From the NCBI GenBank assembly GCA_000182565.2, contig KQ257451.1: DNA of 64,000 nucleotides. One strand, given 5' to 3'. Positions 3,719 through 21,827 of this stretch are shown piece after piece. Each line of letters begins with the position of its first letter. The first letter of the stretch is position 1. The DNA comes from Spizellomyces punctatus DAOM BR117 (lineage: Eukaryota). Made by a program: the position numbers and the translations under genes. Under the pieces are notes generated by a model, which was not told where the DNA came from, did no database searches, and saw only the letters and a program-made list of their open reading frames with translations.

Positions 3719-3871
3719 TAGGGGGGGATGGCTTTATTTGTACGTATATCAATTATATTTTTTGCCTGCTTTCTTAATGTCGCTTTGCCAAGCACGATGA
3801 TATTCCTATTTACTTCAGTGGTCGCGACTTTTCTACCTGGTGGTACTATTAAACTTAGTAGAGTAATAGCG

Positions 3872-5187
3872 CTACGCAGTCAGACCTCCGTCGACGACCA
3901 AGCACTAAATACACAATCGGTATCAAGAATTGCTCCGATGGCCAAAAAATCCGGACATTCGGACACTTACCTCTCCAGTAATATACTCTGCTGTCGCTAG
4001 GAACATGGCTGCCTGCGCAATCTCCTATAATCCGCGAGGCAAAGAACGCTTCAATGGAAAAAACGTTCCGTGTTTGCGCAACCGTGACATGTTACTACCT
4101 CTGGTTTTCCAAAGCGGCCCAGTGGTGTCGAGGAAAGAATCTCTTGTCTCTTGCGTTCTGACATCCCTTTGCAGGAGTACATCACAATTGAACACTAGGC
4201 TATTCGAGCGGATCGACGCCCATCAGAAAAAGTAGATACCAGCAATCATATCTGTTTCGATGTAACCCGGTGCTATCGCGTTAACACGAATGTTTCGACT
4301 TCCCAGCTCACGCGCGAGAGATTTGGTGAAGCCTGAGTAGTGGTGCGGTTAGGCACCCATCCAGGAGCGTCTTTAGTAGGGTACCTATAACTCCAGCTTT
4401 GGATGCTCCATACACGCTCTGCCCTTCGTTCCCTCTCAGTCCCACGGCGGATGCAATGTTCAAAATGCAGCCTAATATCGCCAGGTATGGAACATCAGCC
4501 GACGTTTGCATGAGGAAACGGGTAGAGTGTGGATTCGCACCCTTCTTTCGTTTCATCATTCCTTTGACAACCGCACGGCTAGTGAGGATAGTTGCCGTTA
4601 GGTTGATGTTCAGGAGCTCCAACGCTCGCGAAGAGTTTTGTACAGCAAGCACGGCGTCAGACACAATCCCTACAAGGGATGTGAGTTTGCTTTAGTAAAA
4701 CCTGTTCTTATGCGTATACGCAAATGATTGATTAGGAACCTGCAGAGTTTACGAGGATATCAACATCACCCAGGGCATTGATATGCTAGTTCATGAATGG
4801 TATTGGAATAACGCAGAAGGTTCCTTGCAGTTATGGCTTGGCAGAAACTCTTTGCGGTACCTTTCCTAGGTCCTCCACTTCCGAAATGTCTGCCAGGTTG
4901 GCTTGGAGGGTCACCACTCTGTCCCTCATTTCGTCATGTGCTATATGTCCTGTCAGTCTCTCGTTATTCAGCAAAGAGTAACGGGCCTCTTCTAAGTTTT
5001 CAGAGTTACGGGAAACGAGTACAATTCGACCCCATCGCTGGGCTGCAAGAAACGAGCGGGCGATTTCCAAGCCGATGCCACGGCTACCCCCTGTGATGAC
5101 AGCTATTGACTGCGACTTCTCTGGTGTTTTCGGTGCAGAACGGGACAATCCTGCGACGGACGCTAGACAACGTTGGCTTCGGAACAT
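3872..5187 (-). CDS. Short-chain dehydrogenase/reductase, mitochondrial 3-oxoacyl-ACP reductase (FabG/CBR4-like), multi-exon
   Basis: TGGSRGIG Rossmann motif, YGASK catalytic motif, [27 protein letters not shown], terminal [13 protein letters not shown] introns join the segments. Confidence 0.88.
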
Positions 5188-5340
5188 GCCGACCTGCAAA
5201 AGCAGTCGAAATGGAGGTGTGAAAACAGACAAGAGACGCGTCGCGTTCGCTTACTCCCTTTGAGAATTGGCGATCGTTCGAATTAATCCGTTTGACAAAC
5301 ACATGCATCCTCGCTAGCTGTCCACGCCTCTCTAGCCGCT

Positions 5341-7712
5341 ATGATGGTAATCAGCTGAAATGGTCTTGATGTCAGCCGGGTCAAATCTCTTAAGATCATT
5401 TGTTGATCTCTCTTTCAGTCATCGTACCTCCAACTTCAAGATCCCACCCTTGAGCGTTCTTTCCGCGGACACAAAGATGTGATAACAGGCTTGTGCTTCA
5501 AGCCTTCCATGACGCAGCTGGCTTCGTCCTCTATGGATCACTCTGTAATGGTGTGGAACTTCAAACCACAATTGAGAGCCTTCCGCTTTGTAGGTCATAA
5601 GGTAAGCCTTGTAAACAAAAGTCATTCCGCAGATCGGTTGTTTCAGTTACGGTCTACACTTGCGGCGGGCATGGCAGTGTATCATAGAATTGCATATTGA
5701 CTCTTACGATACCCGAGTAGGGGCCCGTAACCAGCGTGGACTTCTCACCGGCTGGGCAGCTTTTGGCAAGTTCGTCTCGAGACAAAACAGTGCGGCTGTG
5801 GACTCCAAACGTGTAGGTGACCCTTCGTTCAACCGACCACAGCCTTTCTGCCTACTTTTCGGTTAACCCGATGGACAGCAAGGGTGATGTCACAGTCTTT
5901 AAAGCGCATACCTCCTCTGTACGCACAGTACAGTTCTCTCGCGATGGTGACTCCTTGTTAACGGCATCTGATGATAAAACTATTAAGGTGAAAGATTTCT
6001 TAAAGGCGGTGAATGGATGAGCTCTTCCTGATTACGGGCATTGGGTTGCAGTTGTGGTCGACTCACAGGACAAAATTCCAATATACCCTTGCGGGACACC
6101 TGAATTGGGTTCGAACAGCACGATTCTCCCCGGATTCGCGTCTGATTGTATCAGGAAGTGACGACAAAACGGTCAAACTATGGGACTTGGGCAGCAAATC
6201 TTGCGTGAAAACGTACTGGGACCATACGGGGTAAGGGTGGAACATTTTTACGTGCTACTTCTTTGATAGATACGGCCATGAATCAATTGAAATATGGCGA
6301 TCGATCTAGGATGGTGTCATCTGTTGCTTTCCACCCTGCAGGCACCGTCGTAGCATCTGCATCAACCGACCGATCTATCAAGCTTTTTGATATCCGAACG
6401 CACAAATTAATACAACATTACGGTGATGCACATGGAGGGGATCGTCAGTCAGCCGGTGGCGGAGCAGGGGTGAACAGTATAAGTTTTGGCGGACCTGCCG
6501 GCGAGTGGCTCATCAGCACTGGATGGGACGGTGTAGTGAAGGTACGCAGCGAACAGTGCATCGCAGATGTTGACTGCAGTCTGATCATATTACAACTATT
6601 TCCAGATATGGGATTTGAAAGAGGGGCACCTGTTCTATACCTTACATGGCCACAAACACGGACCAACCACAGCAGCGGTATTTTCGCCACATGGAGACCA
6701 TTTTGCTACGGGCGGCAGCGACTCGCAGGTCATGGTTTGGAAAAGCAATTTCGATTCCATTTCCAGTCCAGTGGGAACAGAGGACAAGGATGTGGAAGAC
6801 ACAGGTCAGTAGAGAGACCTTGCGGATGTTGACGAAAAAAACACCTTGTCCTGACTTTGCTTTTTGAAGGGGCAAACCGGCGCCCATTTTCCCAATCACA
6901 CCAGCATGCTCTGTATACCGAAGCATTTACAGCCGGTCGTTCGCGGGCGCAAAGCAAAAGTCCAGTATTGGCAGCACCTGTGCCAATTGCTGCATCCGGA
7001 GGTGTAACTGCGCAAAGAAAGGCCACCCAGATCTACGGTTCAGGAAAAGTTAATGGAGGAAAATCCGACCGACCGCCGATTGTCGATGTTGGTGCCTCAT
7101 TGTTTGCTGAAAAGGTCTATTCCCCTCCCGTCCTTTGTGCCACGGTATTCTCACGTCCTGACACGCAGAATTTGTATATAGGATCTTGAAGAGGATATTG
7201 TTTTGCCACCTTCGCGGCCTACCACATCACCTATCCGAGAAATGCGCAGTTCCCAACAGCACCAAGATAAACAGACGTATACCACACCTCTAGAAGTCCG
7301 AACAATGCCCAACGAGATCGCCTCTACACTTCAACATATTGTCCGACAGGTGGACGTTCTGACACAAACGATGAGCATTCTTGAGGTGAGCATCGTCTTC
7401 AGTTGTTTGTCAATCCCATGATAGTATGGTATTCAAATACACGAACAGAGTCGATTGACAATGAATGAAGATCGGGTAGTGGAAATGGGTCGACGATTTG
7501 GGGATGCGGTCGAGCGCATTGACTGGATGGCGTCTCGGTGGACCAGAGCTAATGCGTCTACAGTTAGCAGCAATGCGCCGGAAGGGGTCGGAATACCACA
7601 TGACGGAAACGATGCTCTAGGGCAGCAACCTGCCGCCCAGGATGCAACGACCGGGAGAGAAAGGGCTGTCCCTAATACTGATCACCCTGAAGCAGAGAGG
7701 ACGGGTATATAA
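5341..7712 (+). CDS. POC1: Centriolar WD40 protein POC1, multi-exon
   Basis: [13 protein letters not shown]...[20 protein letters not shown]40 repeats ([38 protein letters not shown]) and C-terminal Poc1 coiled coil [27 protein letters not shown]. Confidence 0.92.
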
Positions 7713-17827: not shown

Positions 17828-17858
17828 AACCTCCACACTTTGGCGGATACCTTGTACA

Positions 17859-17888
17859 TAGTGCGGAGCCGATGGGTATTGGCACTAG
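17859..17888 (+). repeat. Left terminal inverted repeat (including TA)
   Basis: TAGTGCGGAGCCGATGGGTATTGGCACTAG; reverse complement of 19971-20000 except one A/G difference. Confidence 0.95.
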
Positions 17889-19998
17889 TACAAAGATTCC
17901 AACCAATTTAATCATAATTTTACTCGATTTAGACTCATGAACTATGGTTTGTTTGATCCAAAAATCCTATAATAGTCATCGTCCATTTTCCCAGGCTTTC
18001 ATCTTTTTCTACAGATATCAGCATGCCACCAAAAAAGAAGCAAAAAGTCGACAAACCCACCTTACATACCTGTAACAAGACTTCCTTTGCAAAAGCTTTC
18101 CTGCCAAACGAGATCTATCGCCAACGGCTTCTAGACTTACATCACCATCATCCATCAACTCGCCGACCACGCTTCCCACGCTCTCAAATTCTACATCCTC
18201 TCCACATCCACATCCACATCGTCTTTCCCGGTTGTTCACAAAGATACAATCGAAGCCCTTCTCTATCTTCTCAACAAAGGAGAGGCTTGGCAACCAAAAA
18301 TTGATGCGAAAAGGGCATTGCGCAAATCCTTGTTGCCATATGTCCAACGGTACTGCCAAATCGTCGGCTTCGTTCCCCCAAATCTACAAAAAGAGCAGCA
18401 ATCAGTCAATTACCTGACAGCGAGTATGATGACGAACCTGAGAGTCAACGTTCAAGAGCATTTCATGCAGATGCTGCTCCGATATATCAATCTGCGGCTT
18501 GACGTGAAGAGACAGAAGCAACTGCCACTGAAAAGCAATGCGCGGAAAGCTTTCTTTACTCGACTACGCTACTTGAAGTCAGTTTTTCTTTTTGATATCG
18601 TGCCCGAGTCGCTGGATTTAACACCACTGGAGAGCGAGGTTCTTGAAGAGATTTGGTCATTGGATCTCCCATTCCTTCCCAACGATCCCCTTGCCTATGC
18701 CATTGTTGCTGATCCAATGTCATTTTTTCCCGCGTACTGCAAACTCTCTCGGCTGTATGAACGACATGGCTTCCGTCGGTTCAGTGCAATCCCTCTTCGT
18801 CGGTCTCTGATTCAGTCCCATATTCGCATTGACACGGTCATTCTCTACGCCCACATCCTCTGCATCACCCGCCAAGAAGCAGAAGCCGTAGAGAAGGTCG
18901 ATTTATGGTTGCGCGTCTGTAATCTACGTACCAAAGCTTTTCGGTCTCGCCGCAGTATGCAGTTTGAGGGTTCGATCACGACGGATGGAACCTCGGTGTC
19001 TGTATACCTAAAGCACCCAGAAGCAGACAAGTATGGAAAGCGCGGAGCGAGAAAGTCAGCAAAGAGTTTGGAGGACGAAGTGAAAGCGCAATACATGGAG
19101 AAAAACTTACCTGCTTGTCGAACAGCAGAGAATGTTGTTGTTATCGACCCAAACAAGCGCGACATTCTCTACTGCCAAGACGGCAATGGTACAACGTTTC
19201 GCTACACTGCAAACCAGCGAGCCATGGAGACAGGCAGCCGTCGGCAGCGAAAGGAACGACAGCAGATGAAGAAGGAAGCGGGAATGGACCTCATAGAATC
19301 ACGAATACCATCTCACAAAACAATGAACCTCATGGATTTTACTCGCTACCTCCTCGTCCGTCGTGTCGACTGGAACCGCCGCAAGGACTTCTATTCGCAT
19401 CCTGCTCATACTCGATGGAAATGGCACGCATTCATAAACCGTCAGAAGAGCGAATCAGACCTCATAAGTAACATGCGCAACAAGTACGGTGAAAACCTTA
19501 CTGTTGTAATGGGTGATTGGAGCGACGCCGGTCGAACTGCAAGATTTCAGACCTCATCAAAGACGAAAGGTTGGCGCACCCTCTTTAAGCGCAACAGGAT
19601 CAACTGCTTCCTTCTCGATGAGTACAAGACCTCATCTGTTTGCCCTCGCTGTTCCTCATCTGAGTTTGTGGAGAAAAAATTCAAAGAACGACCTCATTCA
19701 AGACCTTATCGACGACGAGAAGGCAAGATTGAAAAAGTCCACGGATTGCTGGGTTGTACCAACCCTAACTGTTTGCAGCAAGCCTGGACGATGCGCTACT
19801 GGAATCGAGATACGCTGTCAACCTGCAATATGCTAATGATCGTGCAATCAATGTTGGATGGACACGGTAGACCAGAAGTGTTCAGCAGGAGTGTAGCGTA
19901 GCGTAGATTGGTTAGATTAGATTAGGTTTTCCGAACCGGTTGTCGCGCGGTTCAATCCCTGGTGCGGGTGCTAGTGCCAATACCCACCGGCTCCGCAC
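17861..19998 (+). mobile_element. Non-autonomous Fanzor1-encoding DNA transposon with TIRs and TA target-site duplication
   Basis: Inverted repeats at both ends (29/30 identity including the terminal TA); TA at 17859-17860 and 19999-20000; single Fanzor ORF inside; no transposase ORF. Confidence 0.93.
18023..19901 (+). pseudogene. Fanzor1: Fanzor1 RNA-guided endonuclease (TnpB/Cas12-like RuvC), ~625 aa reconstructed, with one +1 frameshift at ~18137
   Basis: NLS PPKKKQKV; RuvC-I VVVIDPNKRD (D at 19146), RuvC-II LLDEYKTS (E at 19620), zinc finger CPRC...CTNPNC, RuvC-III WNRD (D at 19809); TDGTSVSV and GDWS motifs typical of Fanzor1; removing one T at 18137 joins ORF 18023 to ORF 18318 without stops. 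Confidence 0.92.
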
Positions 19999-20015
19999 TA
20001 CTATAGCATCGTTAG
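19926..20015 (+). ncRNA. Fanzor omegaRNA: ~75-nt scaffold (19926-20000) plus ~15-nt flank-derived guide
   Basis: GC-rich self-complementary segment starting 24 nt after the Fanzor stop codon and ending exactly at the element right end; architecture matches TnpB/Fanzor guide RNAs; guide 3' end is inferred. Confidence 0.85.
19971..20000 (+). repeat. Right terminal inverted repeat (including TA)
   Basis: CTAGTGCCAATACCCACCGGCTCCGCACTA. Confidence 0.95.
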
Positions 20016-20201
20016 TAAATAAATATACCTGCACGCAAGCAATGGAATTCATGGTTCCACCAGTTACTGCTTCACGGCTGATTTGGCACGCTTGATAGGA
20101 CCGTCAAGCGTCCACGCGACCAGCGCCATACCGGTTCACGCAATAGTGTTAATATCAAAATTCATGTATTAGGCAATTCAGTTGTCATCAACCACGACAA
20201 T

Positions 20202-21827
20202 CTACACCAAGAAAAATCCCAATAATCCCCTAACAGCTGGCCTCAACGCCTTGTGATGGTACTGATAAGCACTCAACAGGTAGCCCATTCCCATCGCAAA
20301 CAAAGCCACATCTCCACCAGGAATCTTGATCCCGCCCATGCCAAGAGCATGAGTGATCCTCCACCACGAACTTTCCAGGGCCTTGGGCAGGCAGTATAAT
20401 CCAATTTCCCTACGCCGCGACTTTCTCTCAAGCAAAAGGGAGAAACCACAGAGGAAAGACCCTAAAAGGGGACCCAGAGTGGTGTCTTGCCGGGAAACAT
20501 TTCGCACGACGCAAATAGGGGCCCACACACCTGCAATGAATGTGGCGAGGAAAGTCGACGAGCGAAGGGCGTTTGTCGCAACGTGGAGGACCGTTGAAGG
20601 GAACTGGTTGGAAAAAAAGCGTCGCCGGTGGAAGATCAAGGCCGGAAGGAGGTGAACGGGGATGTAGATTTTCAACGCGTCGAAGAATCCGCTACGCCAT
20701 ACGTCCACCAGATGGGTCCAACAGCCTTCAATTCCGCAGTGGATCAGCGTACATGAAATAAAGCCGTTTACCGGATCCCCAGCAGCAAATCCATAACCCA
20801 TTTCTTCTGCATAATCGCCAACAAGATGAGCATGTCCAGTGTCTTTACCGTATACCATAACGCCTTTCCCCAAGAGCTTGACGGCCTCAAGAAGACGAGG
20901 GTCCATACGTGACATTTTCTGGATCCACTTCACATAGCTACGCGGTAGGGCTTCGGGACTGGCATAGCGAAATAAATGGTCCGAGATATCGTAAAGCGCA
21001 GAAATCAACGACTTAAATACTTACTAGTAAAACCAGCAATACATGATCTGGGTGCAGCATGCCACAAACACGGATGTGTCCATATTGTTCATCAATATCG
21101 GTGGGACCCATCGCAACATCCTTTGAATCTTGTGATTCTGGAACGAGGCAAAAGAGTCCATAGCTCTCACCAATGTAAACAGCGCAAAGTCGGCTCGCCG
21201 GGCGGGTTCAATGGTCAGGAGTGCCAATGCACTGGACGCAACTCCAGCAAGGAACGTTGGAGATAGGATGTTACGCGCCGGCGGAAGTTGCGGGGCATTC
21301 TTGGTGTCTATTTGACGTTTAGACTCAAGGTTGGGAGAAGCTTCGTATGGATGATCATCGGCTTCCGCGGCCATGGACACACCTTCAACAACAGATCCCA
21401 CCACCATTCCGTTTCCATTCTTTTTACCATCCCATGCGACAGCGGTCTTGCCATCCAAAGGCCTCCACCCAACCTTCCGCGCTATCTCCCAAAACAGGCG
21501 ATCGAATAGCCGAAACCCGCCAATCAAGACTAAGAAGAACCACGGCAACCGAGCCTTGAAACTTTTGCTCAAGATTTGAAAGAGTTGCCCGAGTAGCGAG
21601 TGCGCAGGAGCCTTGGAGCTGTTTTTTCCTCGCGAGACAAGTCTCTTAAGGATAAGGGACACGATACGCGGGATGCATGCCACGGCATAGCCAGAGAAAT
21701 ACGCTTTAAGGGCGGACAGGAAGATACGGTGAAAAGACGCCTTGAAAGGAGGCACAAAGAGTGGGCGAGATTCTGTCAACTCTGCGGCATCGTGAACAAG
21801 TTTCCGCGAAACGGGTGCTGACGACAT
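20202..21827 (-). CDS. TMEM135/PXMP4-like multi-pass membrane protein (2 exons)
   Basis: DFALFTLVRA, FVACCTQIMYCWFY|..PEALPRSYVKWI, LRSSTFLATF, LLERKSRRREIGLYCLPKALES. Confidence 0.75.

Follow-up and report, generated by a model that had tools for sequence, protein, structure and literature searches.

Among the systems described so far, the closest is the omegaRNA of the Fanzor1 nuclease SpuFz1 together with its Spu-1 (SPu-1) element (Saito 2023, PMC10432273). Spu-1 elements carry 30-nt inverted repeats, the left end is preceded by CA, and the TAM reads CATA. Their RNA was described as 88–90 nt long, with a 75-nt scaffold over the right inverted repeat and a variable guide of 14–15 nt, and small RNA-seq, pull-down and cryo-EM showed that the right end is the omegaRNA scaffold. 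The solved structure (PDB 8GKH; Extended Data Fig. 10e legend), which contains the omegaRNA ID16, has two stems, a 6-nt linker and no pseudoknot; seven base pairs were described for stem-loop 1 (Xu 2024). The distal part of stem 2 (C40–G70) is flexible and dispensable for nuclease activity and can be removed without loss of editing (Saito 2023). TAM-dependent cleavage of dsDNA was shown in the same study for ID16, which has the same fold as a second omegaRNA, ID23, and the TAM of ID23 is listed as N.A.

The family had been described as SPu-1 (Bao and Jurka 2013, PMC3627910), with about 2.1 kb, a 33-bp TIR, a 2-bp TA TSD and a single Fanzor1 ORF, all of which it has in common with the copy studied here. 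In the table of that paper the transposase/superfamily column is empty for SPu-1 to SPu-3, and the DDE link proposed below is absent from it. Fanzor1 genes in TA-flanked TIR elements, like that of Spu-1, are also found in the Mariner-type elements PGv-1, PUl-1 and PUl-4 (PMC3627910), and PUl-4 is non-autonomous with the TIRs of a Mariner family, the arrangement that would apply to Spu-1. These three either have TIRs identical to those of an autonomous partner or carry a transposase on board, whereas Spu-1 ends show a likeness of 18–19 of 27 bases to a transposase element that has no Fanzor. The reRNA of the SfAV Fanzor1 (Yoon et al., bioRxiv 10.1101/2023.08.09.552727) holds the TIR and the 3' TSD in its guide-adjacent stem, as in the present copy, but differs from Spu-1 by a three-stem scaffold of about 120 nt, a TTAN duplication and a viral host; Fanzor1 omegaRNAs without a pseudoknot were described there and in a review (PMC13565253). 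In ISDra2 TnpB, the right end is transcribed as scaffold and the flank as guide, as in Spu-1, whereas the TnpB RNA has a pseudoknot, which the Spu-1 RNA lacks, and IS605 ends have neither TIR nor TSD (as given in Saito 2023).

The locus considered here lies in a window of 64,000 nucleotides of Spizellomyces punctatus DAOM BR117 (contig KQ257451.1) and is almost certainly the omegaRNA gene of a Spu-1 Fanzor1 element, being both the RNA scaffold and the right end of a non-autonomous cut-and-paste element. The scaffold closes a 2.14-kb Spu-1 element on the right, is identical to the scaffold of the published SpuFz1 omegaRNA ID23 and deviates by 1 nt from ID16 (Saito 2023). The original prediction, made from the letters alone, that the same DNA serves as element end and as RNA scaffold is thus upheld by the identity to ID23 and by the experiments of Saito 2023 on sister copies. 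A comparison with the published SpuFz1 omegaRNA, which had been proposed as a check, gave agreement in the two nested stems, the linker and the missing pseudoknot; a TnpB-type pseudoknot at the scaffold–guide junction is absent from the window scaffold. The overlap of scaffold and right end, the fold and the lack of a pseudoknot are already in print (Saito 2023). Shared with that system are the 30-nt inverted repeats, the length of about 2.1 kb, the CATA left end and the two stems with linker, whereas the window copy has its own flank, hence its own guide, a frameshifted Fanzor gene and an expression that is presumptive. Only about 6–8 terminal bases carry both the DNA-end and the RNA function, and the rest of the TIR falls within the dispensable C40–G70. 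A search of Rfam returned one match (E 0.07), below its cut-off and away from the scaffold.

The 30 nt that end at 20000 are an inverted copy of 17859–17888 with one mismatch (A17872/C19987), and a second mismatch (17889/19970) appears when the TIRs are compared over 33 nt. A right TIR reaching to 20000 with a single mismatch had been claimed; this holds over 30 nt and fails over 33 nt, and the last two bases are the TA duplication and not TIR. Because the SPu-1 consensus stops two bases before the end that had been proposed and the TSD is a 2-bp TA (Bao and Jurka 2013), U74–A75 of the scaffold belong to this duplication, and the TSD is described as part of Fanzor omegaRNAs generally (PMC13565253). 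Both TIRs and the TAM are intact in the copy at 17857–20000. Among 20 elements with both ends, 19 have CA immediately before the left TA. A TA target duplication and TIRs were thus found, as in non-autonomous elements of the IS630/Tc1/mariner type, and TA specificity has been described for IS630 and Mariner (PMC13565253). The element's insertion lies between two host genes, because about 150 nt separate its right end from the poly(A) site of a minus-strand neighbour gene (20149–20915). The CACTA/EnSpm superfamily, at which the terminal letters hint and whose end features were used for comparison, was rejected, since the motif has the wrong orientation and the duplication is TA. A second copy of the guide's flank was sought in genome G000, and the single candidate was this flank itself. 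The features are collected in Table 1.

Table 1. Coordinates of the Spu-1 copy in the window and of the candidate transposase element found in genome G000
Feature	Position	Strand	Basis
CATA (CA and left TA duplication)	17857..17860	+	equals the published SpuFz1 TAM (Saito 2023, PMC10432273)
Left TIR, 28 nt without TA	17861..17888	+	inverted-repeat comparison; Bao and Jurka consensus
Fanzor1 gene, frameshifted	18023..19901	+	protein comparison, copy comparison
omegaRNA scaffold, 75 nt	19926..20000	+	identical to ID23; numbering of U5, C6, C7, G20, A29–C34, U35, C40, G70, A72 and A75 agrees with the published description of the structure
Stem-loop 1 (7 bp tested; bulged G22 in the window copy), outside the TIR	19933..19953	+	fold, covariation; Xu 2024
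Linker A29–C34, 6 nt	19954..19959	+	fold; Saito 2023
Stem 2, arm 35–42 paired with the terminal 8 bases (6 of TIR plus TA)	19960..20000	+	fold, covariation; Saito 2023
Right TIR, 28 nt without TA	19971..19998	+	inverted-repeat comparison; Bao and Jurka consensus
Polymorphic C/T site, omegaRNA position 62	19987	+	15 C and 23 T in 38 Fanzor-type right ends
Right TA duplication, U74–A75 of the scaffold	19999..20000	+	published consensus; both pairs invariant in 45 distinct rows
Guide, predicted, 15 nt, from host flank	20001..20015	+	24% identity among copies; 14–15-nt extension in Saito 2023
IS630/Tc1-type TIR element, 3.0 kb, single-copy	G000:C3, about 531,540–534,565 (L115, G000:C3:528500-538400, 3836–6861)	minus	DDE_3 search, TIR comparison

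The 75-mer folds into two nested stem-loops (-28.9 kcal/mol, z -2.19; 6 of 200 shuffles were equally stable), with predicted pair probabilities of 0.79–1.0 for both stems. Counting perfect stems of 6 bp or longer gave three, as against 0.43 in shuffles, and only 0.6% of 2000 shuffles reach three. The four complementary segments that had been listed for the scaffold are all present, two of them requiring one G–U pair each. Two of these pairings are the solved stems; the other two cost more than 10 kcal/mol, and divergent copies do not preserve the long-range one.

For a covariation analysis, a scaffold search gave at least 41 matches, with 40 of 118 candidates scored (40 of 160 in a later search), so that all copy counts are lower bounds. 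From the loci L001–L112, 76 distinct ends were extracted and 67 aligned, giving 45 distinct rows. Nine ends were left out: L056 for a run of N, L062, L063, L069 and L093 for having no terminal motif in range, and L040, L057, L061 and L108 for internal deletions; the end of L076 was placed by hand. The two stems are paired in 98.5% of 670 cells, and 6 of 15 pairs show two-sided changes, so covariation, named beforehand as a check, is indeed found. Such changes occur in 3 of the 7 pairs of stem-loop 1 (99.0% of cells paired) and in 3 of the 8 pairs of stem 2 (98.0%), and RNAalifold returned the same two stems from the aligned ends. Pairing and covariation values were matched by none of 500 shuffles, and slid controls reached 31–57%; the shuffle control overstates the covariation, however, because the events are few (two-sided changes in 2 distinct rows per pair of stem-loop 1) and the changes in stem 2 mostly track the split between end types. 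The covariation is confined to ends within the genome, as 0 of 26 pattern matches for Fanzor relatives in metagenome contigs were confirmed. In divergent end types, the inner TIR is swapped and stem-loop 1 and the base of stem 2 are kept. At L061 (2237–2290, G000:C3) a natural 54-nt scaffold has lost the distal stem 2 and keeps both stems, close to the engineered trimmed omegaRNA. Smaller deletions in distal stem 2 are seen at L040, L057 and L108. The natural end variants and the one natural deletion are a small confirmation of the engineered trimming.

Seventeen further copies that have both ends served to measure conservation. The 45 nt upstream of the TIR, whose lack of conservation had been named as a reason to abandon the scaffold reading, have a mean identity of 94% (scaffold positions 1–45), the right TIR has 96% and the left TIR 98%. 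Mean identity is 81–87% in the ORF, 69% over the 35 nt that precede the scaffold and 24% in the guide, and conservation ends at 20000. L058, L065 and L066 are Fanzor-coding copies in which a right end of another TIR type is joined at the stem-2 arm, suggesting an exchange with ghost-type elements, and the left end of L058 is ghost-type as well. Ghost-type elements (L074–L112; about 630–850 nt) keep the first 5–6 bases and a subterminal box, and their left and right ends differ at 7–18 of 31 positions. L039 carries a 3-base TIR variant at its two ends and L067 has it at the left end alone, pointing to copying between ends. At L064 (G000:C7:73762-74898) a divergent Fanzor (25% identity) has a nearby end that is closest to the TIR of the transposase element (22/27) and has no Spu-1 stem-loop 1 motif.

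An intact Fanzor ORF is absent from the window element, owing to one extra base near 18136 that none of the 17 other copies has (0 of 17), and the first ATG of the frameshifted gene leads to a product of 93 aa. The remainder of the frame has no stop. An open frame of 491 aa (18426–19901) retains three RuvC acidic residues and four zinc-finger cysteines; it matches SpuFz1 (PDB 8GKH chain P) with E 1.3e-299, and its D241, E399 and D462 align with the published D383, E541 and D606. Partial and ghost loci are counted in the family by Saito 2023, and an intact ORF is not required. Four of five reads at 18136, possibly from other copies, do not have the extra base, and the frameshift may be an assembly error. 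In one RNA run, of which about 6% was read, plus-strand depth is 120 at 19875–19961, 26 at 19962–20048 and 0 beyond; the plus strand is probably the sense strand, judged from the poly(A) end of the minus-strand neighbour gene at 20149. Other end types supply most of the plus-strand reads (77 of 145 with C19953T; 200 loose ends ahead of 19922), so the RNA over the scaffold is evidence at the level of the family, and no read, start or end site is tied to the window copy. A contig from another run spans 19971–20300 without difference and may not be independent. Minus-strand reads (depth 45–61) were also seen at 17961–18221 over the 5' part of the Fanzor gene, again at family level, and would be antisense to it by the same reading of the strands.

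A Pfam DDE_3 search of G000 gave two matches from four candidates. The C3 match is a continuous frame, giving 355 aa when read from its ATG, with HTH and DDE_3 domains (E 1.6e-12) and the residues D161, D241 and E286 (DD44E). It lies in an element bounded by inverted repeats that show 89% likeness over 38 nt. The right TIR of this element agrees with the left TIR of the window copy in 19 of 27 bases, as against 16 for the best of 5,754 TA-anchored control sites; its likeness to Spu-1 ends is 19/27 (left) and 18/27 (right), and up to 22/27 for other end types. A matrix trained solely on omegaRNA right ends gave the TIR 17.2 bits, above all 123,394 control 27-mers (best 13.5). The likeness is well above chance and falls short of identity. 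Applied to 26 metagenomic transposase loci, the matrix ranked a TIR-oriented flanking site first in four of the six distinct long loci with a gene start (L122, L124/125, L126/127 and L129; L123 and L128 are ambiguous). The end signature was found 309 times in G000 and 7 times for the reversed control, and it fits the C3 end by construction. No Fanzor gene was detected beside the 26 metagenomic transposase relatives (tblastn, E 0.1; loci of less than 3 kb make up 18 of the 26), and transposase relatives in viral contigs came to 0 of 40. The second DDE_3 match, on C5, is a short broken piece without likeness to the C3 element and was rejected. The C3 element also holds an opposite-strand frame of 294 codons with a weak SUKH-3 match below cut-off. 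It is flanked by two inversely oriented ghost elements, of which one is 167 nt from its left end; because these ghosts lie outside its TIRs, the proximity of DDE gene and ghosts was not counted as evidence.

On these sequence grounds the C3 enzyme is a candidate for the Spu-1 transposase, which Saito 2023 did not find. The sources covered (the supplements of Saito 2023 and of Bao and Jurka, Jiang 2023, Yoon and Muszewska 2017, in the portions consulted) assign no transposase to SPu-1. The TA duplication, the matched ends and the IS630/Tc1-type likeness of the TIRs suggest that the right end of Spu-1 is a transposase-binding end. There is a slightly better than even chance that a single family of IS630/Tc1/mariner type includes the Spu-1 Fanzor elements and the gene-less ghosts as non-autonomous members, and that its transposase (HTH and DD44E) survives once in this genome, at G000:C3.

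It had been proposed that the RNA might form a pseudoknot or switch folds, by pairing 11–15 with 61–65 or 41–45 with 56–60. On this rival reading C62 would have been fixed to permit it. The complementary segments exist, but such a proposal is not derivable from the letters, because 5-bp complements are no commoner than by chance (at least one perfect complement in 86% of 2000 shuffles; 15 seen and 13 expected with G–U pairs). Among 38 Fanzor-type ends, the common changes U12 and U62 leave 11–15:61–65 pairable through G–U, yet this pairing stays at shuffle level (80.4% versus 80.5%), and 26 of the 45 distinct rows cannot form its pair C11–G65; together with its energy, this led to its rejection. 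The helix 41–45:56–60 is paired in 79.1% of 220 cells and beats all 500 shuffles on cells paired and covariation score, but relatedness among copies can yield this excess, 46 of the 220 cells are unpaired, the helix is a competitor of stem 2, and a fold forced to contain it is 10.5–10.7 kcal/mol less stable in a nested model. It lies inside the dispensable segment, where distal stem 2 gave no clear cryo-EM density (Saito 2023); C40–G70 is dispensable for editing, and the structure published there has no pseudoknot. Both alternatives have probabilities below 0.001 and forced folds of -18.2 to -19.0 as against -29.5 kcal/mol, in a nested model that cannot score true pseudoknots, and bases 11–15 and 41–43 are already taken by the solved stems. 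A third competitor, the TIR's own hairpin (47–52:70–75), which had not been listed before, was likewise rejected (probability 0.001, cost 4.7 kcal/mol). A pseudoknot or fold switch is therefore very improbable, and the original prediction is not supported on this point. Nor is any meaning supported for the TIR mismatch, whose place in a predicted pairing segment had been pointed out. Position 62 segregates, with T commoner than C, the predicted fold is kept with either base, and the segment is dispensable, so adaptation was rejected as an explanation. Of the 20 elements with both ends, among them the one in the window, 16 have concordant left and right bases (12 A/T, 4 G/C) and 4 show the A/C mismatch; A17872/C19987 thus seems to combine two end alleles.

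Two further alternatives concern the activity of this copy and the mobility of the family. That the window copy is dead, with a frameshifted nuclease and its RNA not made, is quite possible, although short of an even chance, and would leave the identity of the locus untouched. The extra base near 18136 is private to it, the RNA evidence is at family level and not copy-specific, and in the native organism RNA was found at four loci (Saito 2023); yet the scaffold is perfect, being identical to the tested ID23, TIRs and TAM are intact, and the rest of the frame is free of stops. It is unlikely that the RNA role alone maintains the right end, with the TIRs as relics and a spread by Fanzor-induced gene conversion or another DDE-free route. 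No transposase was found within the Spu-1 inverted repeats (Saito 2023). Ghost copies have ends that differ to the extent given above where a CA- or TA-preceded left end was found, and the single-copy C3 element has a left TA that reads AA and a transposase with three deviations from its relatives, all in almost invariant columns close to the catalytic E. Against relics, however, the left ends, which hold no scaffold, are as conserved as the right ends, and left and right ends change together, as seen at position 14 in 16 of 20 elements and in the variant on both ends of L039. Copies also lie in unrelated flanks with TA on both sides, and the end signature is shared far beyond its reversed control.

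With an omegaRNA gene at the end of a transposable element as the preferred reading, transcription through the right end into host DNA would give an RNA of 88–90 nt, with the 75-nt scaffold of two nested stem-loops and a guide of 14–15 nt. Such an RNA, scaffold plus guide, was shown for sister copies (Saito 2023) and would presumably be made from the window copy. Fanzor1 would bind stem-loop 1, the linker and the base of stem 2 and cut DNA that reads CATA followed by a match to the guide, that is, the pre-insertion site. The cleavage rule was shown in vitro (Saito 2023), and the natural target would be the vacated pre-insertion site. As its own nuclease gene is frameshifted, the RNA of the window copy would depend on Fanzor protein supplied by a copy with an intact gene. 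At the DNA level, the bases of the right end would act as right TIR and TA duplication of a non-autonomous cut-and-paste element, which is most likely moved in trans by a transposase of IS630/Tc1/mariner type, and the mover is probably the transposase family found at C3. The two functions would hardly conflict, as just the last 6–8 bases pair in the part needed by the protein and the inner TIR, in the dispensable loop, would be free to follow the transposase. If this is true, the omegaRNA tolerates any end variant of the transposase family, because the terminal bases alone pair.

The finding in the window itself adds nothing beyond what is in print, and the one fresh lead is the transposase element at C3. 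The C3 candidate could matter: the literature gives Fanzors no established natural role, and the best-studied Fanzor1 had no known transposase. A named transposase candidate would open excision, footprint and homing assays. If the proposal is true, Spu-1 and the C3 element would be another member of a known arrangement, as Mariner-type Fanzor1 elements have already been described, and a eukaryotic cut-and-paste transposase and an RNA-guided nuclease would work as a pair in trans. In that case 'restorative homing' by a Fanzor1 would become directly testable.
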